A stretch of DNA of 47,650 bases. It comes from a virus. Its lineage: Duplodnaviria; Heunggongvirae; Uroviricota; Caudoviricetes. The notes under the pieces were generated by a model, which saw nothing but the letters and a program-made list of their open reading frames with translations, was not told where the DNA came from and made no database searches. The position numbers were made by a program, and so were the translations under genes. Positions 222 to 44,024 of this stretch are shown here, piece after piece. The stretch lies in the IMG/VR virus record IMGVR_UViG_2541047798_000009. One strand, 5' to 3'. Within the stretch, counting starts at the first letter, position 1. The number at the start of each line of letters is the position of its first letter.

Positions 222-290
222 ATGGCGCTTTACACAATTGGTGAAGTGGCGTTGCTTTGTGATATTAACCCTGTCACGTTACGCGCGTGA
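222..290 (+). pseudogene. mlrA: 5' fragment of a MerR-family regulator gene (MALYTIGEVALLCDINPVTLRA then TGA), interrupted at the prophage junction
   Basis: ATG at 222 encodes MALYTIGEVALLCDINPVTLRA, a MerR-type HTH N-terminus recalled from memory as matching E. coli MlrA/YehV; the frame hits TGA where Trp is expected and downstream sequence is phage-like. Identity to mlrA is from memory, not a search. Confidence 0.45.
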
Positions 291-459: not shown

Positions 460-512
460 TTGACACTGGTTATCCACACAGCTAAAAATAACACCTGTAC
501 ATAACTACAGTT
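460..512 (+). promoter_or_regulatory. Sigma70-like promoter (TTGACA -35, 17-bp spacer, TAAAAA -10) with overlapping LexA box CTGT-N8-ACAG
   Basis: -35 TTGACA at 460-465; -10 at 483-488; acCTGTacataactACAGtt at 493-512 matches the SOS box pattern CTGT-N8-ACAG with AT-rich spacer; AGGAGG RBS and ATG at 526 follow. Confidence 0.7.
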
Positions 513-525
513 ACAGGAGGGGGTT

Positions 526-774
526 ATGCGTGTTGAGATCTGTATCGCTAAAGAAAAAATCAGCAAAATGCCGAAAGGTTCTGTTCCTGCTCTGCAGCAA
601 GAAATGCTGCGCCGCATAGGTAAGCGATATGACGATGCAGATGTGATCGTTAAATCTGCCAGCAATGATGGACTCACCATTTTAAGAGCCGTCGATAAAG
701 AATCAGCACTGGAGTTCGTACAGGAAACACTACAGGAAGTCTGGCAAACCGCGGACGACTGGTTTATGCAATAA
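526..774 (+). CDS. DinI-like damage-inducible protein (82 aa)
   Basis: Translation [40 protein letters not shown]...WQTADDWF resembles E. coli DinI in length and in the N-terminal MR.E..IAK and C-terminal ADDWF motifs; preceded by a LexA box and strong RBS. Confidence 0.85.
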
Positions 775-4351: not shown

Positions 4352-7300
4352 TCAGCTAATCGTGATGCCTGCAGTGGCTTTCTTCATCACAACAACCAGC
4401 AAATCGCTGATACTTGCTGTGGGATACCAGCCATTTACCCACCATGCTGATACAGAAAACTCCAGCGTCATGTCGCCGCGACCAGCAGGCATATCAATAA
4501 CACCACTGTAAACCAGCGTATTATCCATCGCGGTACGGTTATAAATTTCAGCACCGTTTTTCTTCACTATCAGGCGGCATGACGAATAAGTATCGCTGTT
4601 CTCCCGCTCATGTCTGGCACCGCTGAAAGCCACCGCCGGAATAACAATCTGCCGGTTAAACGGCTGATCGTCATAAACCCTGACGGTAATGGTTCCTGAT
4701 GGCCAACGCTTCGGTGCACGGGAGTCACGAGGGAAAGCCTTACCCACTGTTTTAACGAGATCGCCTTCAATCTGGTTTGCAGACAGTTTCCCTCTGATGA
4801 CACAGTTCTCGTTAATGGTGACATTATTGAGCGTGCCGGTATTCGCCGTGATGGCTCCACTGATATCCGCATTGCGGGCTGCCAGCCTGCCATCCGGCGT
4901 CAGGGAAAACGTAGGAGGATTGCCGGATGACGTGATGCTCACCGCAAACAGTCGCTTCAGGAACACGTCGTTCATGAACAGCTGATTCCCCTGCGCCACA
5001 AACAGCGGCGTGGTGTTGCCGTTCTCCGGGGTAATCATCGCAATGCGATCGGCCTGCAGCAGAATGTTACTCAGGGTCTGACCATCAACATCCTCAATCC
5101 CCGCGCCAATCCCGGCCACATAGGGAATACCGTTTTTTGTTTTCTGCACCTTCAGCATATACATGGCATTCAGCTCATTGCGCGTGTCTGACTGAACCCG
5201 CTGGATTTGCTGTATGGTCACGGCCTGGTCACCCAGCTTTTTATCCGTGGTCGAGGTAATTTCACTCCCTTTTTTATCCACGTACTGGCGGACCTGTGCT
5301 ATCTGTCGGGCGTTTTCTGACTGCCCCTGGCTGACAGTCTGTGAGATTTCACTGCTCACCCGGTCCACTTTCTGGCTCACCTGCGCGATGGCCAGTGTCT
5401 GATCCTCATTCTTTTTCGCAACCAGCTGCGTGAGGCTGTTTTCCGCCTTCCCGATTTTCCGGGTCACTTCTGCGATATCCGTGTCCATCCGCTGACGGAT
5501 ATCTTCTTCCAGTTGCGTGACCTCCGTACGCAGCGCTGAAGCATCAATGCGCTCTTTCAGTGCCTGGCCCAGAAGCGTCTCATCTATCAGCCCCCGGAAA
5601 ATTTCCAGATACCCTTCACCATCATTGCTGGGCTGCCCGCTGGCTTCCACAAAAGCAGATTTTCCCACCAGGTTGACGCTTCGCACGTAAAACCAGAAAT
5701 CCGTCCCCGGCTTAATCCGGCTCCCCTGGACAGTCCACTGACTGCCGGTCCCCAGATAACGGGCAGATTTTTCCACCTGTGCTGTGTTCGTGATGCGTTT
5801 TTCTGAGAACCAGAATTCAAACTGTACCGTCGGGTCATACACCGCAAGACGCGGGACCGCCGTTATCTGAAAATACCCCGGCGTCAGCTCAATGGTGGCG
5901 GGTTTTGCAGGTGCGTTAATCCGGAAGGTGGTGGTGGCAGGTTCACCCTGCTGGCCATAGCTGTTTATCGCCCGCACCGTCAGGGTGTATTCCCCGAGCG
6001 GCAGGCCGCTGAAACGGTGCTCCGTGTCTGCGGTGATGGCAGTGGTCACCAGTCTGGCATCCGTTCCCTTACCACTGGTCAGGCGCAGACTGAAGCGCAC
6101 GCCCTTCACCACCCGCGGCGTGTCCCATTTCGCCTGCGCCAGATACTGGCCATCAGCTGCGCTCACCTCCACCGTCAGGTGCTGCACTGCCGGTGGGATA
6201 ACGCTGTTCAGGGTGCCTGACTGCGGCTCAAAGCGGGCACCGTTATCCACGATGGCTTCTTTTTCCGGTACGTGCTGCACCGCCGTGATGGCAAAGGTGC
6301 CGTCCGTGTTTTCCCGGATGGAGACACAGCGGAACAGGCGACGGCGCAGTGACGGCAGGGAGAGTCCCCACACCCCGTATGTCTCCACACCATCAGGCAG
6401 GGTACTGACCTGTATCCGGTCCGGCGCGGGGTGTGCGGTGATGTCCACACTCACCGGCTTACCGCTGCCGTTAATCAGGTTCACCGCTGATGTACCTGTC
6501 TCCGGCAGGGTAACCTCACGGTCCAGCGTCAGGGTGCGGGTGGCAGCATCAATGGACAGGACACGTCCGCCGGTCAGGGTCCCGGCATAGTCATTATCAC
6601 AGATTTCAATAATGTCACCGGGTGTGTGACGCAGCCCCTGTGACCCGAGCGTGAAATCCACCGTCTGCGTTTCCAGCAGTTCGGTCTTTATCACCCACAG
6701 CCCGGCACGGTGGGCCTGACCGCGGCTGGTACAGCCGAACGCGTCCATCTTCAGCAGGTTGCGTCCGTAGCGCAGTATGGCTTCCGGGTCTTCCACCAGT
6801 TCCGTGGAGGTCTGCCAGCCGTTCTGCGGGTCGGTGTAATTCACCTCCACCGCCGTGTGCCGGTCCTTCAGGGCACTGAAGCTGTAGCGGAAACCCACGC
6901 CGTTATCATCCACCACCACATCGCTGCTGGTGTACGGCCACACCACATCCGACGGGCGGTCCTGAACAAACGTCAGCGTCTGACCGTTCCATACCGGCAT
7001 ACAGCGCATCGCAGAGCAGAAATCACTGAGAACGTCCCACGCCTTACGCTGTTGTGCCAGGTACGCATTAAAGGTCATCCGCGGCTCGGTCCCCCCGAAA
7101 CCATCCGGGACCGTCTGGTCGCAGTACTGCCCGATGGCATACAGCGCCCACTTGTCCACATCCGCCACCCCCAGACGTTTTCCCATGCCGTAGCGCGGGT
7201 GAGTCAGCATGTCCCACAGGCACCAGGCCGGGTTGTTGCTGTATGCCGGTTTCAGACTGCCGTCCCAGATACCACTGTACGTGCGTTTTTCCGGGTCATA

Positions 7301-30800: not shown

Positions 30801-31398
30801 GAATCCTCCCGGCCGGGATAATATTGTGAGTAAAATAAGGAGCGGGCTGAAGTCCGGAAGTTACAGGACAATGGCAGAAGAGAGACGACAGCCCGCAATT
30901 CGAAAAAGACCGCGCAGTTGCGCAGAGTGATTACTATGGGGTATTATTCGTCAGCTGAAATATTACTTCACGTTTTATTGTTTATTCCTTGCCGCCCGCG
31001 TCTCCCAGCGCGGGCTTTTTTTGTCCATAAGAAAGCCCCTCCGGAGAGGGGCTGGAGAGTGGCGCTATGTGCCATTGCATGATGCCGGGTGCCTCCCGGT
31101 GAGTTCAGCCCGGTGACACTGAACCCGCGTCATTCTCGTTTTGATAATCAGAGATTATACCATCACCAGTCGCCCCTCCGCTCAGGGGGATTCACCATGC
31201 CGTTCTCTTTTAACAAATTCGCCGCTAACAGGACAACATTCCGCTTTCTGAGTTGTGAGGAATTTAACACTTCACACCTGTGTGCATTTTCTACAGGCTG
31301 ATCCCAGCACCACAATACATCGCAGGCAACAGAAGCCAAATGCCCCACCACAGAAAAAACATGCAATTATGATTATTGTTTACTGCAAAGATGTAGAA

Positions 31399-32105: not shown

Positions 32106-32182
32106 TGGACCGCCATCGAGGACTCGAACCCCGCGCAGCCAGCTTCGAAGGCTGGCGCTCTATCCCGATGAGCTAATGGCGG
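32106..32182 (-). tRNA. tRNA-Arg (anticodon UCG by hand folding)
   Basis: Hand-folded cloverleaf: 7-bp acceptor, D-arm GCTC/GAGC, anticodon stem CCAGC/GCTGG with loop CTTCGAA, T-arm CGGGG-TTCGAGT-CCTCG, CCA encoded. Confidence 0.7.
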
Positions 32183-32191
32183 TATGTGATA

Positions 32192-32267
32192 TGGTGGCCC
32201 TTGCTGGATTTGAACCAGCGACCTGGCGATTATGAGTCGCTCGCTCTCACCACTGAGCTAAAGGGCC
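32192..32267 (-). tRNA. tRNA-Ile2 (anticodon CAU, ileX/ileZ-like)
   Basis: Sequence GGCCCTTTAGCTCAGTGGTGAGAGCGAGCGACTCATAATCGCCAGGTCGCTGGTTCAAATCCAGCAAGGGCCACCA is very close to E. coli ileX as recalled; anticodon loop CTCATAA. Confidence 0.8.
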
Positions 32268-32646: not shown

Positions 32647-33096
32647 AAAAACCCGCTCGACGGCGGGTTTAAGCTGTGTGACGAAGTAACCACTCTTAAC
32701 AGCATAACCAATTTTTTACGTACGTAAACTACTAAATGATATTTGTGAGAATGCCACCGAGTGTTCAAAACACCACCACAAATACATAAGAAAACCTCAA
32801 CAAATAACCAATGAATAATTTCCGATGTTATTTTTAGGTTGTTTAAATTAAGCCAAAAAATTATAGGGCGCTTATAAATAAGTGTCATTAATATAAATTA
32901 GCTAATAGATTTATTTTTGTTCAAACAAGAGCCATGAATAGGATTAGATAGAAAAGGTTCAGATAAAAATAGAGATCTACGTCACAAATTAAATGAGAAA
33001 CTAAAACTTACATCTTGAAATAATCACATTGATTAGATGAATATTTATCGCGCAGTGACATCATTTTTTTATAATAGTTCAAAAAAAGGGCGTACA

Positions 33097-34179
33097 ATGA
33101 AAAAATTAACAGTGGCAATTTCTGCTGTAGCTGCATCAGTACTGATGGCGATGTCTGCTCAGGCAGCTGAAATTTATAATAAAGACAGTAACAAGCTGGA
33201 TCTATACGGGAAAGTTAATGCCAAGCACTACTTCTCCTCTAATGATGCAGATGATGGTGATACTACTTATGCTCGTCTTGGCTTCAAAGGTGAAACCCAA
33301 ATCAACGATCAACTGACTGGTTTCGGTCAGTGGGAATATGACTTCAAAGGCAACCGTGCTGAATCTCAAGGTTCTTCCAAAGACAAAACCCGTCTTGCAT
33401 TTGCAGGCCTGAAATTTGGTGATTACGGCTCAATCGATTACGGTCGTAACTACGGTGTAGCATACGACATCGGTGCGTGGACTGACGTTCTGCCAGAATT
33501 CGGTGGTGATACCTGGACCCAGACAGATGTGTTCATGACTGGCCGCACTACTGGTGTTGCAACTTATCGTAACAACGACTTCTTTGGTCTGGTCGATGGC
33601 CTGAACTTTGCTGCTCAGTATCAGGGTAAAAATGACCGCACTGACGTAACTGAAGCCAATGGTGATGGTTTCGGTTTCTCCACTACTTATGAGTATGAAG
33701 GATTCGGCGTGGGTGCAACCTATGCTAAATCAGATCGCACTGACGGTCAGGTCGCCTATGGTAAGAGCAAATTCAATGCCTCCGGCAAAAATGCGGAAGT
33801 ATGGGCTGCAGGCCTGAAATATGATGCGAACAATATCTATCTGGCTACCACATATTCTGAAACTCAGAATATGACCGTTTTTGGTAATAACCATATTGCA
33901 AACAAAGCACAAAACTTTGAAGCAGTAGCACAATATCAGTTTGACTTCGGTCTGCGCCCATCTGTTGCTTACCTTCAGTCAAAAGGTAAAGACCTTGGTG
34001 TTCATGGTGACCGAGACTTAGTCAAGTATGTCGATGTCGGTGCTACTTACTACTTTAATAAAAACATGTCCACTTTTGTTGATTACAAAATCAACTTAAT
34101 TGACGATAGTAAGTTTACCAAAACAGCTGGTATTGATACCGACGACATCGTCGCTGTAGGTCTGGTTTATCAGTTCTAA
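33097..34179 (+). CDS. Outer-membrane porin (OmpC/OmpF/NmpC/Lc family, 361 aa)
   Basis: Signal peptide [23 protein letters not shown] then [23 protein letters not shown]... and C-terminal ...[11 protein letters not shown]-rich promoter region upstream; antisense to late transcription as nmpC is in DLP12. Confidence 0.9.
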
Positions 34180-38649: not shown

Positions 38650-38958
38650 TTAAACCCGAAACAATGAGGAGCGCGATTGCGTTCCTGCCAGGGGCGGCTG
38701 AGTTGTATACCCCTGTAAAGCTCTGCCCTGATTTCTCACAAACAAGCGGAGCCTTGTGTTTGCTTCGTGCCTTGCTCTGTTCTCCTTGCGGAATGAAACA
38801 GGCTCAGCGTCAAAAGTGATTTCGTATACCTCCGCATATTTCAGGGCGACCTTCCGTCTCAGTGACGGAGGCAGCCCCTGTAACTGCTGCTGAATCCACT
38901 CTTCGTCTGCCTGGCAGTACCTAGCTGGCATTTCAACCCTGACTAAATCCTGTTGCAT
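38650..38958 (-). CDS. Hypothetical protein (102 aa); C-terminal 20 aa run into the C-rich intergenic region and may not be native
   Basis: ORF from the track; the first ~80 aa look protein-like, the tail is low-complexity. Confidence 0.35.
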   Translation of the reverse strand: MQQDLVRVEMPARYCQADEEWIQQQLQGLPPSLRRKVALKYAEVYEITFDAEPVSFRKENRARHEANTRLRLFVRNQGRALQGYTTQPPLAGTQSRSSLFRV

Positions 38959-38961
38959 GGC

Positions 38962-39081
38962 TTACTCTTCCCGCTTCGCTATGAGGTTATAAACCCCGCT
39001 GATCGGGTCATACCATATGCTGCGTGGCAGCAGCTTCTGGAAGTAGCGCGGATCTGGCATTACGGTTGACTGTTGTGACAT
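38962..39081 (-). CDS. Small ORF (39 aa) coupled to the cro-like gene
   Basis: ATG sits 4 nt after an AGGTG that overlaps the cro-like stop; the start lies inside a 12-bp perfect palindrome GTGACATGTCAC. Confidence 0.3.
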   Translation of the reverse strand: MSQQSTVMPDPRYFQKLLPRSIWYDPISGVYNLIAKREE

Positions 39082-39088
39082 GTCACAC

Positions 39089-39289
39089 CTAACTATTTGT
39101 TTTCCGTAATGGAGAAAAAATGAGGCTCTCTTTAGATAATTTGAGGGTTGGTGAAACTTTAGATACCGCTTCCTCAATTCTTTCAGCCATTGCAACTGAG
39201 GGGCGCCTAAAACCCAGAGCCATCTGGTTCAGGTATGCAACGCTAGTCCCAGATAACTGTGCCAGCCGCCTCCATTCATCCGCGCTCAT
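39089..39289 (-). CDS. Cro-like HTH regulator (about 66 aa; alternative starts at 39322 or 39334)
   Basis: MSADEWRRLAQLSGTSVAYLNQMALGFRRPSVAMAERIEEA is a Cro/YdaS-type HTH; divergent from the repressor gene across operator palindromes. Confidence 0.6.
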   Translation of the reverse strand: MSADEWRRLAQLSGTSVAYLNQMALGFRRPSVAMAERIEEAVSKVSPTLKLSKESLIFSPLRKTNS

Positions 39290-39344
39290 GACTCCTCTGA
39301 TTGAGAGCAATACACTGGACATAAAAAACCCCATACTGTATTGG

Positions 39345-39416
39345 TTATTAGCAACGTGCTAACATTAGCACATGAGATCACAATACAGCAATACGCTGTA
39401 AAGCATTTAGCTAACA
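39345..39416. promoter_or_regulatory. O_R-like operator region with TTAGCA/TGCTAA half-sites
   Basis: 15-bp perfect palindrome TTAGCAacgTGCTAA (39348-39362), a TTAGCA half-site (39365-39370) and palindrome TTAGCTAA (39407-39414) between the divergent regulators. Confidence 0.55.
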
Positions 39417-39427
39417 ATGAGACAAGC

Positions 39428-39883
39428 ATGGAAATCAAAGATATTCGCTTAAAAAATCTACAGACGGTAATCCAACGCAGCGGCTTAACCCAGACAGATC
39501 TGGCGTTAAAATGTGAGATATCACCCTCACTTATAAGCCAAATAATGACTAAGCGCAGAAATATGGGAACTGCTCTCGCTAGAAAACTCGAGGGGCGACT
39601 GAGCCTATCAGAAGGATGGTTTGACATCCCCCACTCATTGCTGGATTCCCCATGGCATCTAGCTAAAATGAGGGAAAAGACTGGTGAGACCACTATTGAT
39701 GAACAGCAACTAACTAAAAGAGAGACTCGACTTATTGAGTTATTCAGACAAATGCCTGAAAGCGAAAAAGACAGGATAATCAGTGAGTTATCTGAAAAGA
39801 AACGTAATTTTGACAAACTACTTGATGAGCTAATGGCTGTTAAAGCATCAAGAATGCCGATCGACAAAGACGAAAATGAATAA
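39428..39883 (+). CDS. CI-like repressor with N-terminal HTH and no LexA-type S24 peptidase domain (151 aa)
   Basis: HTH LKNLQTVIQRSGLTQTDLALKCEISPSLISQIMTKRRNMGTALARKLE; C-terminal half is coiled-coil-like with no Ala-Gly/Ser-Lys autocleavage motifs; the track start 39341 is a TTG inside the operators. Confidence 0.6.
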   Translation: MEIKDIRLKNLQTVIQRSGLTQTDLALKCEISPSLISQIMTKRRNMGTALARKLEGRLSLSEGWFDIPHSLLDSPWHLAKMREKTGETTIDEQQLTKRETRLIELFRQMPESEKDRIISELSEKKRNFDKLLDELMAVKASRMPIDKDENE

Positions 39884-39917
39884 TAAATACAACGCACTAT
39901 AAAAAAAACAGCAAATA

Positions 39918-39989
39918 TTAGCATTTTGCTATTGTCAAGAATAACGCATAGCGCTACATTCACCTCAGCAAGTAAAAACAAGTGAGGTG
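39918..39989 (+). promoter_or_regulatory. P_L-like promoter with operator palindrome TAGCAtttTGCTA and an RBS-sequestering hairpin
   Basis: Palindrome at 39919-39931 matching the O_R motif; -35 TTGTCA (39932-39937), -10 TACATT (39955-39960); inverted repeat CACCTCA (39961-39967) / TGAGGTG (39983-39989) whose right arm contains the GAGGTG Shine-Dalgarno. Confidence 0.45.
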
Positions 39990-39995
39990 AATGTA

Positions 39996-40439
39996 ATGTT
40001 AAATGATAAACATGACTCTTATTCCGTAAACTCTCTGTTGATTTGTGCTCAAGCGGCACTATTAGGCGGTACCGCTTCAAACCATGACGTCATCAACCTC
40101 TTAGATGTTGCACAAGACATCATCTCTTCAACTATGAATTCCTTTACAGATAGTAGCGCTCCCGGCGCTAATGTTGATTTATTTACCAAAGAAGTTAGCG
40201 CTAGTAATTCCCCAGCATTATCTTTCGGTCAACGTATTCTCCAAGCGCGTAAATCAGCAAGTCTTCAACAACATCATATTGCCAGCGGTGCTGGAGTGAC
40301 TGTTCAGGCTGTTTCGTTATGGGAAAATGACTCAGCAATTCCTACTTGCGACAAAATTATCCCATTGGCAAATCTTCTTGGCTGCGATCCAATGTGGTTA
40401 CTGACTGGTGCTTATAAACAAAATCAGGAGGAAGCATAA
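39996..40439 (+). CDS. Hypothetical protein with C-terminal XRE-type HTH (147 aa) at the N-gene position
   Basis: C-terminal SFGQRILQARKSASLQQHHIASGAGVTVQAVSLWENDSAIPTCDKIIPLANLLGCDPMWLL is an HTH_XRE pattern; ATG 6 nt after GAGGTG. Confidence 0.55.
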   Translation: MLNDKHDSYSVNSLLICAQAALLGGTASNHDVINLLDVAQDIISSTMNSFTDSSAPGANVDLFTKEVSASNSPALSFGQRILQARKSASLQQHHIASGAGVTVQAVSLWENDSAIPTCDKIIPLANLLGCDPMWLLTGAYKQNQEEA

Positions 40440-40440
40440 G

Positions 40441-40632
40441 ATGAAAATGTTCAAAGGCCTCACCAACGAACCGGAAACAGCTTTTCATCACATTGCCGTA
40501 CTGCTTGAAGCGGGGTTAATCATTTCGGCTTCCGGTGATGAAGAATGTGATGAACTTTCGGATGATATCTTTTTACTGGCACAACAATACGCCAGAAGCG
40601 CATGCGATGCATTTAAGGAGCAAAGAACATGA
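40441..40632 (+). CDS. Hypothetical small acidic protein (63 aa)
   Basis: ATG 2 nt after the previous stop, AGGAGG upstream. Confidence 0.45.
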   Translation: MKMFKGLTNEPETAFHHIAVLLEAGLIISASGDEECDELSDDIFLLAQQYARSACDAFKEQRT

Positions 40633-40820
40633 TAACTCCATTAAATATTCTTGAGGAAGTGGCAGCACAAATAAAAGAGAATACATCCATGCTTGAATTT
40701 ATATTTAAGAATTCGCCTGATTCAGGAGAGACAGACGATTATTTATGTTGCCTCATTCGCTCCATGAATAAAACCTGTGAAATGGCTTACGCGTATATCG
40801 ACACACTGCGCAACGAATAA
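40629..40820 (+). CDS. Hypothetical small protein (63 aa)
   Basis: Start overlaps the previous stop by 4 nt (ATGA). Confidence 0.45.
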   Translation: MITPLNILEEVAAQIKENTSMLEFIFKNSPDSGETDDYLCCLIRSMNKTCEMAYAYIDTLRNE

Positions 40821-41004
40821 AGAAAACTCAATAAACAATCACCCATAAAAACATAACGGCCTCTGGTCGGGAATTTCCACAACCTGAAAATGGTGGTGAT
40901 GCATGAAAAACAGAAGTGCTTATAAAACCGCATTATTAATGGCTAATGCAGGATACTGGTCAGTTGCAATACTGTTTCTCAGAAAAGCATACGGGAAATA
41001 ACAA

Positions 41005-41364
41005 ATGACACATGAACCCATTAATACATATCGTCGCCGTATAGCTGTTGCGGCACTCCATCGAATAAAACGTAAAACAGGTGGTAATCTGCTTATTGTT
41101 GACCTTCCGGATGGGAACATTACGACCATAGAAATAACTGAACAGTTTATAAACCAGTTGCTGTTACGCTTCGAAGGTATTACCCGTGGTGAATTGGGCC
41201 GGGTGGAGGGTGAAACCGAAATCCACACTGCATACCAGAATGCTATCGGGATTAATCAACATACTGAATACCTGACTGAAACCGGAAAGTTAATTATAGA
41301 CAACCTTTTTCAAGAGGTTATTGATTACGCGAAAGAAAAATATATCAGCGGAGGAATTAACTGA
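41005..41364 (+). CDS. Hypothetical protein (119 aa)
   Basis: ORF in the early-left operon; coupled to the next ORF. Confidence 0.45.
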   Translation: MTHEPINTYRRRIAVAALHRIKRKTGGNLLIVDLPDGNITTIEITEQFINQLLLRFEGITRGELGRVEGETEIHTAYQNAIGINQHTEYLTETGKLIIDNLFQEVIDYAKEKYISGGIN

Positions 41365-41579
41365 TGGCTAATTTATCCCCTGTATCTGTTGTGCACGAAA
41401 AAGTGCAGATCGTTATGACAATTGAAAATGGCCAAGTCACAGGTGTCTGCAAAGTCCGCGATGGCGAGCTGATTGCCAGCATGGATACATTCATACGGCT
41501 GGCAGAAAGAGCGGGGTATCAGATAACAGCACCTGCTCAGGAGGAAACCGGTGGCATTAACAGCAACACGCATTCCTGA
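41364..41579 (+). CDS. Hypothetical protein (71 aa)
   Basis: Start overlaps the previous stop (ATGA/TGATG-type coupling). Confidence 0.45.
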   Translation: MANLSPVSVVHEKVQIVMTIENGQVTGVCKVRDGELIASMDTFIRLAERAGYQITAPAQEETGGINSNTHS

Positions 41580-41765
41580 GCGGATCCACCGGCAGGCATT
41601 GCAGGTCCTGTTGTTGTACCGATGCCGACGGATATTTCCGCATCGGATACAGCGCACCGGATATCTCAGTCTGAAGGTTAACCGTCGCTGGCGGCTGTTA
41701 TCGAAAGACGACGGCCGGAACTGGGAAGTAATGAGTCATGAACGTTATTCGGGAGAAATAAAGAA

Positions 41766-42158
41766 ATGATCGACAACCGCACCGCCAGCGCCATTGACCA
41801 GGCATTACAGAAACATGATACACCCGTCGGCCCGTTATTTTTTGTAACACGCCACGGAAGAACAAAAAAATGCCTCACTCGAAAAACGGCAATTCGTTAC
41901 CTGGCCTTCTTTATGACCACCCGCGCTTTTGAACGTTCAGGATTCCGACAACGCTATCCTGACAAGCGTTTTATCTTCAACAGGAATGAGATATGGAAAC
42001 GTGGAGAATCAACCACAGAGTATACCCGCGCACACCAGCGAACAATCAGACGACTGCGCAGACTCATCGCCAGGAAACAGTATACAGAAAAATGGTTCAG
42101 AAAATATGACACATGGAGCGCCGGATATTACGAACTGATGGCAACAAAACCATTCTGA
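41766..42158 (+). CDS. Hypothetical strongly basic protein (130 aa)
   Basis: Arg/Lys-rich ORF (…TIRRLRRLIARKQYTEKWFRKY…) suggesting nucleic-acid binding; no domain recognised. Confidence 0.45.
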   Translation: MIDNRTASAIDQALQKHDTPVGPLFFVTRHGRTKKCLTRKTAIRYLAFFMTTRAFERSGFRQRYPDKRFIFNRNEIWKRGESTTEYTRAHQRTIRRLRRLIARKQYTEKWFRKYDTWSAGYYELMATKPF

Positions 42159-42218: not shown

Positions 42219-42407
42219 ATGAACATTTATTTCAGAATAGTTATATCACTGGCAATTATCACATGTATTTACGGATTAATCGTTCCGGCCCTCATATCAA
42301 TGAAGGATACGGTAGCAGTGATTTCTGGCTTTGCTCTGGCGTGTCTGACCCCGCCCTGCATTTATGCCATTTATAAGGGTCTTTCTTTTTCTAAGGATAA
42401 AAGATGA
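42219..42407 (+). CDS. Small two-helix membrane protein (62 aa)
   Basis: Two hydrophobic helices (IVISLAIITCIYGLIVPALI and VISGFALACLTPPCIYAIY); its stop overlaps the SPFH gene start by 4 nt. Confidence 0.5.
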   Translation: MNIYFRIVISLAIITCIYGLIVPALISMKDTVAVISGFALACLTPPCIYAIYKGLSFSKDKR

Positions 42408-43231
42408 AAAAATTACTTTTTGCTTTAGCCCTTGTTCTGCCGACCATTGGCCTTGTCGGTTGCGATCGCGTTGAGCCTGGTAATGTGGGCATCAAAGTAA
42501 ACAAACTGGGCGACGATAAAGGCGTCGGTGAAGTGGTCGGTGTTGGGCGCTACTGGACGGGATGGAACACTGAGGTTTACATCTTCCCGACCTTTAAGCA
42601 GATGAAGACCTACGATGATCCATTCAGTTTCCAGATGAGTGACGGTACAACCATCGGCTATCACATCGGCGTGGCCTACAAAGTTGATCCATCCAAAGTT
42701 ACCACAGTCTTTCAGACCTACCGCAAAGGCGTGGACGACATTACCGACACCGACCTGCGCCAGAAGATAGCCGACGCACTCAACCGACTGGCCAGCAAAA
42801 TGACCACCGACAAATTTATCGACGGCGGCAAGTCTGAGCTGCTGGATGCAGCTCTTAAAGACATTCAGGAAGAAATGACGCCCATCGGTATTCAGGTAAT
42901 GAGCCTCTCATATGTGGGTAAGCCGGAGTACCCGCCTACTGTTATCGACAGCATTAATGCCAAAGTCACGGCGAACCAGAAAACCCTGCAACGCGAGCAG
43001 GAAGTAAAACAGCGCGAAGCGGAAGCCAACATGTTGCGCGCGGAAGCTGCCGGACAGGCAGATGCGATTCGCACAAAAGCCCAGGCCGAAGCCGATGCTA
43101 TTCGTTTACGCGGTGAAGCTCTGCGCCAGAACCCCGGTGTTATGGAGCTGGAAGCCATCAACAAGTGGAACGGTACACTGCCGCAATACATGACCAGCGG
43201 TGCCAACACACCATTTATTCAGGTTAAGTAA
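42404..43231 (+). CDS. SPFH/band-7 (HflC/prohibitin-like) lipoprotein (275 aa)
   Basis: Lipobox LVGC after the signal peptide; SPFH-like core and an Ala/Glu/Arg/Gln-rich coiled-coil tail (…QREAEANMLRAEAAGQADAIRTKAQAEADAIRLRGEA…). Confidence 0.65.
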   Translation: MKKLLFALALVLPTIGLVGCDRVEPGNVGIKVNKLGDDKGVGEVVGVGRYWTGWNTEVYIFPTFKQMKTYDDPFSFQMSDGTTIGYHIGVAYKVDPSKVTTVFQTYRKGVDDITDTDLRQKIADALNRLASKMTTDKFIDGGKSELLDAALKDIQEEMTPIGIQVMSLSYVGKPEYPPTVIDSINAKVTANQKTLQREQEVKQREAEANMLRAEAAGQADAIRTKAQAEADAIRLRGEALRQNPGVMELEAINKWNGTLPQYMTSGANTPFIQVK

Positions 43232-43274: not shown

Positions 43275-44024
43275 ATGAATATTGTAACCATCAACAACAA
43301 ACAGTTTCCGGTAATCGAATATCGCGGTCAGCGTGTTGTGACATTTGCAATAATTGATGACGTCCACCAGCGCCCGGAAGGTACCGCCCGTGCTGCGTTT
43401 AACCGCAACCGTTCTCACTTTATCGAAGGGGTGGATTTTCTTGAAATGACTGCGGACGTAATACGTACGGAGTCACTTTCTGATGCCTTTGCCGCGCGAA
43501 CTGCCAAAGGGATCATTCTTTTCGAGTCTGGTTACCTGATGTTGACGAAGCCTTTTAACGATACTCTTGCATGGCAGGTTCAGCGCGAACTGGTTAACAG
43601 CTATTTCCGAACTCACGCGCCGCTGACGGAAATGGAGATGATCGCTGCAATGGCCGCCGATGCCGTTCGCCAGCAGAAGCGCCTGAGTCATGTTGAAGAG
43701 AAGATCGAAACAGTCACCAAAGCTGTGGAGAACATCAAACGCGGCACAATGCGCACCGGATATGTCGGTTACCGCCAGGTGGTAGCCAAAAGCGGAATGA
43801 GTGACGCCAAGTGCCGGAATCTGGTCAACGCCTACCACATCCCTACCGACACGCACGAATTTATGACTCCGGACGGTCTGTTGTCTCGCAGGGCTATCGT
43901 CGAGCTTGAGACATTTATGGCGGCATTCCACCAAATGATGTCAGAGGCTGAACCACGCGGCACACGCTGGTATCACCCGAAGATGGGGCTTTTCCAGGTA
44001 ATCGGATGGGAGGATAAAGCATGA
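43275..44024 (+). CDS. ORF6N-domain protein (putative antirepressor, 249 aa)
   Basis: N-terminal FPVIEYRGQRVVTFAIIDDVHQRPEGTARAAFNRNRSHFIEGVDF fits the ORF6N/AntA-type domain found in phage antirepressors. Confidence 0.55.
   Translation: MNIVTINNKQFPVIEYRGQRVVTFAIIDDVHQRPEGTARAAFNRNRSHFIEGVDFLEMTADVIRTESLSDAFAARTAKGIILFESGYLMLTKPFNDTLAWQVQRELVNSYFRTHAPLTEMEMIAAMAADAVRQQKRLSHVEEKIETVTKAVENIKRGTMRTGYVGYRQVVAKSGMSDAKCRNLVNAYHIPTDTHEFMTPDGLLSRRAIVELETFMAAFHQMMSEAEPRGTRWYHPKMGLFQVIGWEDKA

Follow-up and report, generated by a model that had tools for sequence, protein, structure and literature searches.

How can a prophage be induced when its repressor appears unable to cleave itself? The question is posed by the immunity switch (positions 39089-39883) of a 47,650-nt stretch of viral DNA, IMG/VR record IMGVR_UViG_2541047798_000009 (the whole stretch is hereafter called the window), in which a cro-like gene and a cI-like repressor gene diverge. 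The window holds a lambda-like Escherichia coli prophage that is inserted in mlrA and appears complete. Its tail, head, lysis, Q and replication genes lie on the minus strand, while the early-left operon, xis and int lie on the plus strand; the switch therefore occupies the position of cro-OR-cI-OL in lambda. An initial annotation, made from the DNA letters alone, compared the switch with that of Gifsy-type prophages and left the route of induction undecided. The comparisons reported here place the switch in the known DicA/Gifsy class, with a wiring that joins a non-cleavable repressor to a candidate antirepressor gene, o71, located in the left operon in the manner of Fels-1 fsoA.

The initial annotation described the repressor (coordinates of all features are given in Table 1) as a cI-like protein with an XRE helix-turn-helix (HTH) and without a LexA-type S24 peptidase domain, leaving it to a formal search to say whether such a domain was present. 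Pfam returned HTH_3 alone, above its cut-off, at residues 16-65, and neither Pfam nor NCBIfam detected an S24 peptidase in the protein. Direct reading of the sequence revealed no Ala-Gly dipeptide. The AlphaFold model (mean pLDDT 76) was all-helical, with the HTH at residues 1-70, a disordered stretch at residues 72-92, and two further helices at residues 97-108 and 111-142, taken to be a short oligomerisation domain. Further, phmmer searches with LexA, Fels-1 FsoR and the cI of phage phi467 found no S24-like segment in any of the 1,089 open reading frames (ORFs) of the window. All these results agree with the original description. The absence of the S24 domain, the Ala-Gly site and the Ser/Lys dyad sets the switch apart from the lambda cI/LexA (S24) type, with which it otherwise shares the OR/OL layout, the divergent cro gene and a DNA-binding domain related to that of H-19B cI.

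The top PDB match of the repressor, by both sequence (E 4e-4) and fold, was SPC32H Rep, which also lacks a peptidase domain and has been solved in complex with its antirepressor Ant (PDB 5D50). A profile of the repressor family aligned in hhalign with Qin DicA (97%, E 1e-10, 113 columns, both domains), with Gifsy-2 GtgR (94.5%, E 8e-8, 101 columns), and with the N-domain of SPC32H Rep (94%); with the C-terminal domain of Rep the likeness was limited to a short motif. The NCBIfam DicA model matched the C-terminal domain of the repressor with an E value of 3.6e-10, which is below the family cut-off. The C-terminal motif reads LFRQMPESEK...DKLLDEL, against LFNALPESEQ...NKLFEEL in DicA and LFNQLPEAEK in GtgR; the repressors of Salmonella Gifsy-1, -2 and -3 (GfoR, GtgR/GftR and GfhR) are likewise short XRE proteins without a cleavage site and with a C-terminal LFxQ(L/M)PExEK motif. 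The N-terminal part lies closer to the cI of H-19B and several Shiga toxin (Stx) phages, which is cleavable, than to Qin DicA, with 39% identity to this cI over the first 71 residues. The protein has the look of a DicA-type tail fused to a DNA-binding domain of the cI type. Judged by these alignments and by its length (151 aa, against about 130-200 aa for the class), it is a member of the DicA/Gifsy-type non-cleavable class and is predicted to be unable to autocleave. DicA, GtgR and SPC32H Rep are all repressors under antirepressor control, and the homology to DicA, to GtgR and to the N-domain of Rep backs the earlier proposal that antirepressor-mediated induction of the Gifsy type fits this prophage better than the lambda mechanism.

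The same annotation had reported palindromes with the half-site TTAGCA between the divergent genes and upstream of the next operon, and both statistics and conservation bear this out. The operator form is TTAGCA-N3-TGCTAA. With up to two mismatches to the palindrome allowed, the 15-mers of the 47,650-bp window yielded TTAGCAACGTGCTAA (at OR1) and TTAGCATTTTGCTAT (at OL1) and no others. The non-coding DNA on either side of the repressor gene, 205 bp in all, holds four of the window's nine TTAGCA/TGCTAA hexamers, against an expectation of 0.039 (Poisson 9e-8; 0 of 20,000 shuffles). A 21-nt segment of OR recurs at OL in inverted orientation. For conservation, relatives from Klebsiella, Enterobacter and Salmonella genomes and uncultivated viral contigs were compared (loci denoted by L and a number), with repressor identities of 41-99%; they were drawn from viral contigs and exact-protein matches, a search of genome contigs by repressor alignment having given no confirmed locus. 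The OR site is found in L005 and L016-L018 and, as TTAGCAATATGCTAA, in L019-22; among the relatives examined, only L003, with a single divergent half-site (ACAGCAATGTGCTAA), fails to keep it. All of these relatives have the OL site, and TTAGCAnTTTGCTATTG occurs in 10 of the 10 loci searched for that pattern. Operator conservation thus reaches relatives with a repressor only 41% identical, and the recognition helix, which is nearly invariant across the repressor family, fits this.

Two weaker sites, ACAGCAATACGCTGT and AAAGCATTTAGCTAA (the latter three mismatches from the palindrome), are operator-like candidates; better versions lie at the same places in L005 (ACAGCAACACGCTAA), L003 (AAAGCAATATGCTAA) and L019 (ATAGCATTTAGCTAA). 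The perfect OR1 site covers the -10 region and start point of the putative cro promoter, PR, and ACAGCAATACGCTGT covers its -35 region. The layout of PR is repeated in L003 (TTGCTG-17-TAATAT) and L019 (TTGCTA-17-TATAGT), and the spacing of PL, the putative promoter of the left operon, is kept in the same two loci (TTGTAA-17-TACATT and TTGATA-17-TATATT, respectively). The positions of both promoters, and repression at OL, are probable readings of the layout. The palindrome TAGCGCTA in the PL spacer was considered as an operator and rejected, the palindrome not being kept in L014 or L016.

The start of the cro-like gene was set at 39322 by alignment with relatives (L019 has a 77-aa homologue). 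Its product gave a weak HTH_3 match (E 5e-4, under the Pfam cut-off) and a match to PHROG 35, 'transcriptional repressor' (E 5e-4). All related loci have, likewise divergent from the repressor gene, a gene for a protein 45-97% identical, while in E. coli VR50 the cro-like gene was left unannotated by PGAP.

The whole prophage was scanned for LexA sites, as had been proposed at the outset, with a 20-bp matrix built from 22 E. coli sites; real sites score 12-28, and the positive controls, the SPC32H ant box and the Gifsy-2 dinI box, scored 25.3 and 24.4. Only two LexA boxes were found in the window, both over the promoter of a dinI-like gene, which is its only LexA-controlled unit. LexA control of this gene, proposed in the initial annotation, is upheld; its assigned interval of 493-774 is not, since this begins with one of the two boxes and not with the coding sequence. 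By the matrix, no LexA box lies between PL and position 41364 or upstream of the gene for an ORF6N-domain protein, the antirepressor candidate of the initial annotation; the best score upstream of the latter was 4.4, in agreement with the early remark that it lacked a box of its own. In 17 related loci (with flanks of up to ±10 kb) no score exceeded 15.3, and three isolated sites of 14.2-15.3 were in the range given by shuffled sequences. Two further candidates in the window were rejected as LexA boxes: 40970-40989, upstream of o119 (score 6, kept only in the near-identical phi467), and a half box at 39334-39353 (score 6.6). A strong LexA box (score 24.1) was seen in Fels-1 (L027) at 5796-5815, inside the coding sequence of the repressor gene fsoR.

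The dinI-like protein is an ordinary full-length DinI (Pfam E 7e-17; NCBIfam DinI) with no extra domain. Past the 3′ end of its gene there is a hairpin resembling a terminator, with no ORF beyond, and no GftA or IrsA homologue lies beside the gene. In the Gifsy prophages, the antirepressors GfoA, GftA and GfhA are encoded in a LexA-controlled dinI-antirepressor-irsA operon (PMC3121763). The window prophage has no such operon: like Gifsy it contains a small gene of the antirepressor family but, unlike there, this gene has no LexA box, and dinI is monocistronic at the prophage end.

The small gene in question, o71, sits 1.5 kb downstream of the repressor gene, in the left operon, and had been overlooked. 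The earlier statement that the induction route could not be decided still holds in part, as no SOS-controlled antirepressor was found in cis. At the equivalent position, the Salmonella locus L003 encodes a 66-aa protein that carries a precomputed weak Pfam 'Rem' label and matches o71 at E 2e-6. The left operon of Fels-1 is syntenic: between the homologues of o119 and o130 it has a 78-aa ORF that matches o71 (E 9e-6 in phmmer; 98%, E 3e-13 in hhalign) and is the only ORF of that operon to align with GftA (E 4e-4). Lemire et al. mapped fsoA to an interval containing this ORF (PMC3121763), and because of its position, its size and its sole alignment with GftA within the operon we took it to be FsoA. 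The o71 family aligned in hhalign with Rem (E 2e-4) and with GftA (E 5e-4), sharing the same strand-strand-helix core that ends in DTFxxxAxxAG. Relatives of o71 at 73-86% identity carry precomputed PF27490 'Rem' matches, and a combined family profile retrieved the Rem of E. coli K-12 (E 2.7e-4). Pfam gave no match for o71, GftA or the L003 'Rem (weak)' protein, PF27490 being either missing from the set or under threshold; the link between o71 and 'Rem' thus rests on the precomputed labels and on our own profile searches. Searches of the window with SPC32H Ant, Gifsy-2 GftA and IrsA (tblastn, phmmer) gave no convincing match, o71 being just a weak top match, and tblastn with SPC32H Ant reached at best an E value of at least 1. 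A profile search of the PDB with o71 retrieved no relative. No plus-strand terminator was found between PL and o71. In size (about 65-85 aa) and in homology to FsoA, as identified above, o71 agrees with the small antirepressors; its kinship suggests, by analogy, that it has antirepressor activity and a specificity to match.

The 3′ end of o71 is overlapped by an ORF of 72 aa (41551-41769, plus strand) that encodes a ParE-like toxin domain (PF24732, E 3e-17). The two occur together in L005/6 and phi467, and not in L003, L014 or L017.

The Gifsy repressors are not cleaved; small antirepressors release them from DNA, and both GftA and FsoA have been shown experimentally to be antirepressors of GtgR (PMC3121763). 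Rem has likewise been shown experimentally to be an antirepressor of DicA (PMC10448788). The account that we favour, with modest confidence, is an antirepression switch of the Gifsy/DicA type wired like Fels-1 fsoA, with o71 as a self-repressed latch and the trigger coming from elsewhere. By binding the TTAGCA operators, the repressor would silence PR and PL. Since it is predicted to be unable to autocleave, its inactivation would most likely take place by stoichiometric binding of a small antirepressor of the FsoA/Rem type. As a gene of the left operon, which the repressor controls, the prophage's own candidate, o71, would be expressed only when repression is weakening. Being under repressor control and having no LexA box, it would serve as a latch and trans-inducer and not as a DNA-damage sensor: it might provide positive feedback and possibly induce co-resident prophages, as fsoA does in Fels-1. 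The first trigger would come from another prophage's antirepressor, or from stochastic or stress switching like that of DicA/DicC, which also switch spontaneously and under urea or heat (PMC10448788). Whichever of these it may be, the trigger is presumably not encoded under LexA control in cis.

The systems that resemble this arrangement differ from it in informative ways. In Fels-1, fsoA lies in the left operon under the control of the phage repressor and not of LexA (PMC3121763), and the gene order o119-o71-o130 is shared. However, FsoR is of the cleavable S24 type (PMC3121763); the window repressor being non-cleavable, o71 would, unlike fsoA, be repressed by its own likely target. Qin of E. 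coli K-12 (DicA/DicC/Rem) also has a cro-like gene divergent from a short non-cleavable repressor gene, a second repressed promoter directly downstream of the latter, and a small Rem protein; no LexA box lies upstream of Qin rem either. There, however, rem is flanked by Q and the replication genes, on the side of cro, while the Rem-like gene of the window is in the left operon. In SPC32H, ant has a strong LexA box, and no Ant homologue is present in the window.

Several observations weigh against the favoured account. The identity of the Fels-1 78-aa ORF with FsoA is presumptive, and pairwise BLASTP of this ORF against GftA or Rem gave nothing. The AlphaFold monomer model of o71 is of low confidence (pLDDT 64). 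Homologues of o71 also occur in phages with S24-type repressors (phi467, Fels-1) and were not detected in L016 or L019-L022; o71 and the repressor family are thus not strictly coupled, and the pairing of o71 with the repressor, as drawn from sequence, is that of a candidate. OL1 is centred near -42, upstream of the -35 region, a geometry that could activate as well as repress. Finally, sequence reading gave no confident placement for the repressor gene's own promoter.

The favoured account can be extended to an element with no damage sensor of its own, which would be induced only by the antirepressors of co-resident prophages or by non-SOS cues, with o71 as both an all-or-none latch and an outgoing signal, and with a hairpin near PL (see below) safeguarding the first lytic-side gene. 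This extension is speculative, and we consider it rather unlikely to hold in full.

An alternative that we regard as possible, although doubtful, is that SOS reaches the prophage only in trans, through an antirepressor of another prophage that is controlled by LexA or by a cleavable repressor, o71 being irrelevant to self-induction. In keeping with this, none of the candidate antirepressors, whether in the window or in the flanking DNA of related loci, was found to have a LexA box; antirepressors of the o71 type can act across heteroimmune repressors (PMC3121763), and o71-like genes occur in phages with unrelated repressors. Such a route is, however, compatible with a latch role for o71 and does not exclude it.

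The prophage might instead be blind to SOS and use no antirepressor at all, flipping stochastically or under non-SOS stress through instability of the repressor and competition by the Cro-like protein. In its C-terminal domain the repressor most resembles DicA; DicA/DicC are documented to switch independently of Rem (PMC10448788), and no SOS input was found in cis. We nevertheless judge this unlikely: a Rem/FsoA-like gene is kept in most of the close relatives, and the seemingly complete state of the prophage suggests that selection has maintained a route of induction.

The first gene of the left operon, HTH2, raises another option, namely that the module encodes its own counter-regulator (an antirepressor or a second switch protein), silenced in lysogens by a stem-loop. 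HTH2 is matched by PHROG 4836, 'CII-like regulator', and a homologue follows the repressor gene in every relative with at least 54% repressor identity. The stem-loop, the arms of which are 100% complementary, folds at -23.1 kcal/mol (z -6.5); its 5′ arm contains the -10 region of PL, and its 3′ arm the Shine-Dalgarno sequence of HTH2. The Salmonella relative L003 preserves the stem through three changes on both sides, which are compensatory. The more distant relatives of the L019 group have no hairpin and carry, instead, a rho-independent terminator after the repressor gene; in the window, no terminator was found between the repressor gene and PL. Transcripts initiated at PL would not include the 5′ arm. 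Formation of the hairpin is therefore expected only in RNA that reads through from the repressor gene, in which it would hide the HTH2 ribosome-binding site; it looks like a fold-back block on the translation of HTH2 from such transcripts. Both this conserved hairpin and the constant place of HTH2 beside the repressor gene would suit a counter-regulator. However, the search for homologues returned only generic 'helix-turn-helix' names and no characterised protein, HTH2 varies independently of the repressor (35-63% identity among the relatives, and 63% in L014, the repressor of which is 99% identical), and a related gene also follows the S24-type cI of phi467. A counter-regulatory role for HTH2 is thus very unlikely. 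By eye, the N-terminal 70 aa of HTH2 and the two next ORFs of 63 aa (39996-40820), together with small ORFs of L019 (7157-8130), look like one short helical family.

The antirepressor candidate of the initial annotation, the ORF6N protein, is highly improbable in that role. Its gene is in the left operon, and PHROG families labelled 'anti-repressor' match it; the ORF6N domain, as annotated, was confirmed. This DNA-binding domain is, however, the only one that Pfam detected: of the two marks of antirepressors of the P22 Ant/KilAC kind, a C-terminal ANT/KilAC domain and homology to P22 Ant, Pfam reported no trace of the first, and for the second no P22 record appears among the 25 of 94 phage tblastn matches listed. 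Its phage homologues are annotated inconsistently, and the gene, which has no LexA box, is patchily distributed, being missing from L003, L005/6 and L017, which have a repressor of the same family, and present in phi467 with its S24-type cI.

Finally, inactivation of the repressor by the dinI-like protein, which had been put forward for testing, is barely credible: although this gene alone is under LexA control, through two boxes at its promoter, and Tum, the antirepressor of phage 186, resembles DinI in its C-terminal half (PMC3121763), the protein is an ordinary DinI from a monocistronic gene, has no similarity to Rem, GftA or SPC32H Ant, and non-polar dinI deletions have no effect on Gifsy induction (PMC3121763).

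Table 1. Features of the immunity region, left operon and dinI-like locus, in window coordinates.
Feature	Position	Strand	Details
Tandem LexA boxes and monocistronic dinI-like gene	464-774	+	Boxes 464-483 (score 15.3) and 493-512 (score 17.3); coding sequence 526-774
cro-like gene	39089-39322	-	77 aa; ORF runs to 39334
OR1	39348-39362		Perfect palindrome TTAGCAACGTGCTAA, plus third half-site TTAGCA at 39365-39370
PR-like cro promoter	39362-39391	-	-35 TTGCTG (39386-39391), 18-nt spacer, extended -10 TGcTAATGT (-10 at 39362-39367)
Weaker operator-like site ACAGCAATACGCTGT	39385-39399		
Weaker operator-like site AAAGCATTTAGCTAA	39400-39414		Just upstream of the repressor start
Repressor (cI-like) gene	39428-39883	+	151 aa, ATG at 39428; XRE HTH, disordered linker, two-helix DicA-like C-terminal domain
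OL1	39918-39932		Near-perfect operator TTAGCATTTTGCTAT; adjoins the -35 of the next operon's promoter
PL-like promoter	39932-39960	+	TTGTCA (39932-39937), 17 nt, TACATT (39955-39960)
Stem-loop	39955-39995	+	13-bp stem, 39955-39967 with 39983-39995
HTH2, first gene of the left operon	39996-40439	+	147 aa; uncharacterised N-terminal domain and C-terminal P22 C2/DicA-like HTH
o71	41364-41579	+	71 aa; candidate antirepressor of the GfoA/GftA/FsoA/Rem family; start overlaps the o119 stop (TGATG)
ORF6N-domain protein gene	43275-44024	+	Left operon; ORF6N Pfam E 1.6e-12

The surroundings of the switch point to exchange of the module. In phage phi467 (L002), the flanking genes show 85-97% DNA identity to those of the window, yet no match was found to positions 38932-40356, and a 229-aa S24-type cI is encoded there instead. 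The exchanged segment comprises a small ORF, cro, the repressor gene, the operators and the N-terminal two-thirds of the next gene. On this comparison, the immunity module is a cassette that has been swapped relative to phi467. E. coli VR50 matches the right 15 kb of the window at 99.7% identity, and several genomes have an immunity region with 100% identity; the module occurs in 19 E. coli genomes, and Shiga toxin-producing strains are among its carriers. An Rfam search over the immunity region found no known RNA.

At the left end of the window (224-290 and 415-447), the prophage cuts mlrA/yehV short at roughly codon 22. Immediately inside the prophage end, CATAGATGCCC occurs as three direct copies that may be arm-type sites of the integrase. 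Between the late promoter region and Q there is an STnc100 small RNA (Rfam, 158 bits), tRNA-Arg(TCG), tRNA-Met(CAT) and a gene for an OmpC-like porin (31023-31229 and 32106-32267, minus strand; 33037-34179, plus strand). The early-left operon also includes, at 42219-43231 (plus strand), a 62-aa membrane-like ORF followed by an SPFH/band-7 lipoprotein gene, an accessory pair that is partly present in L014.

The locus largely applies known biology. Nonetheless, non-cleavable repressors are a common feature of E. coli prophages, and the route by which such prophages are induced bears on the spread of phage-borne genes and on the response to DNA-damaging antibiotics. The switch offers a compact and testable case, with defined operators, a repressor related to those of three characterised antirepression systems, and an antirepressor candidate of the FsoA/Rem type. 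If the proposed account is true, the model of 'prophage crosstalk' developed for the Gifsy and Fels prophages of Salmonella would extend to the lambdoid prophages of E. coli, and the result would bear on what triggers Rem-type antirepressors, a question left open by the study of Qin (PMC10448788).

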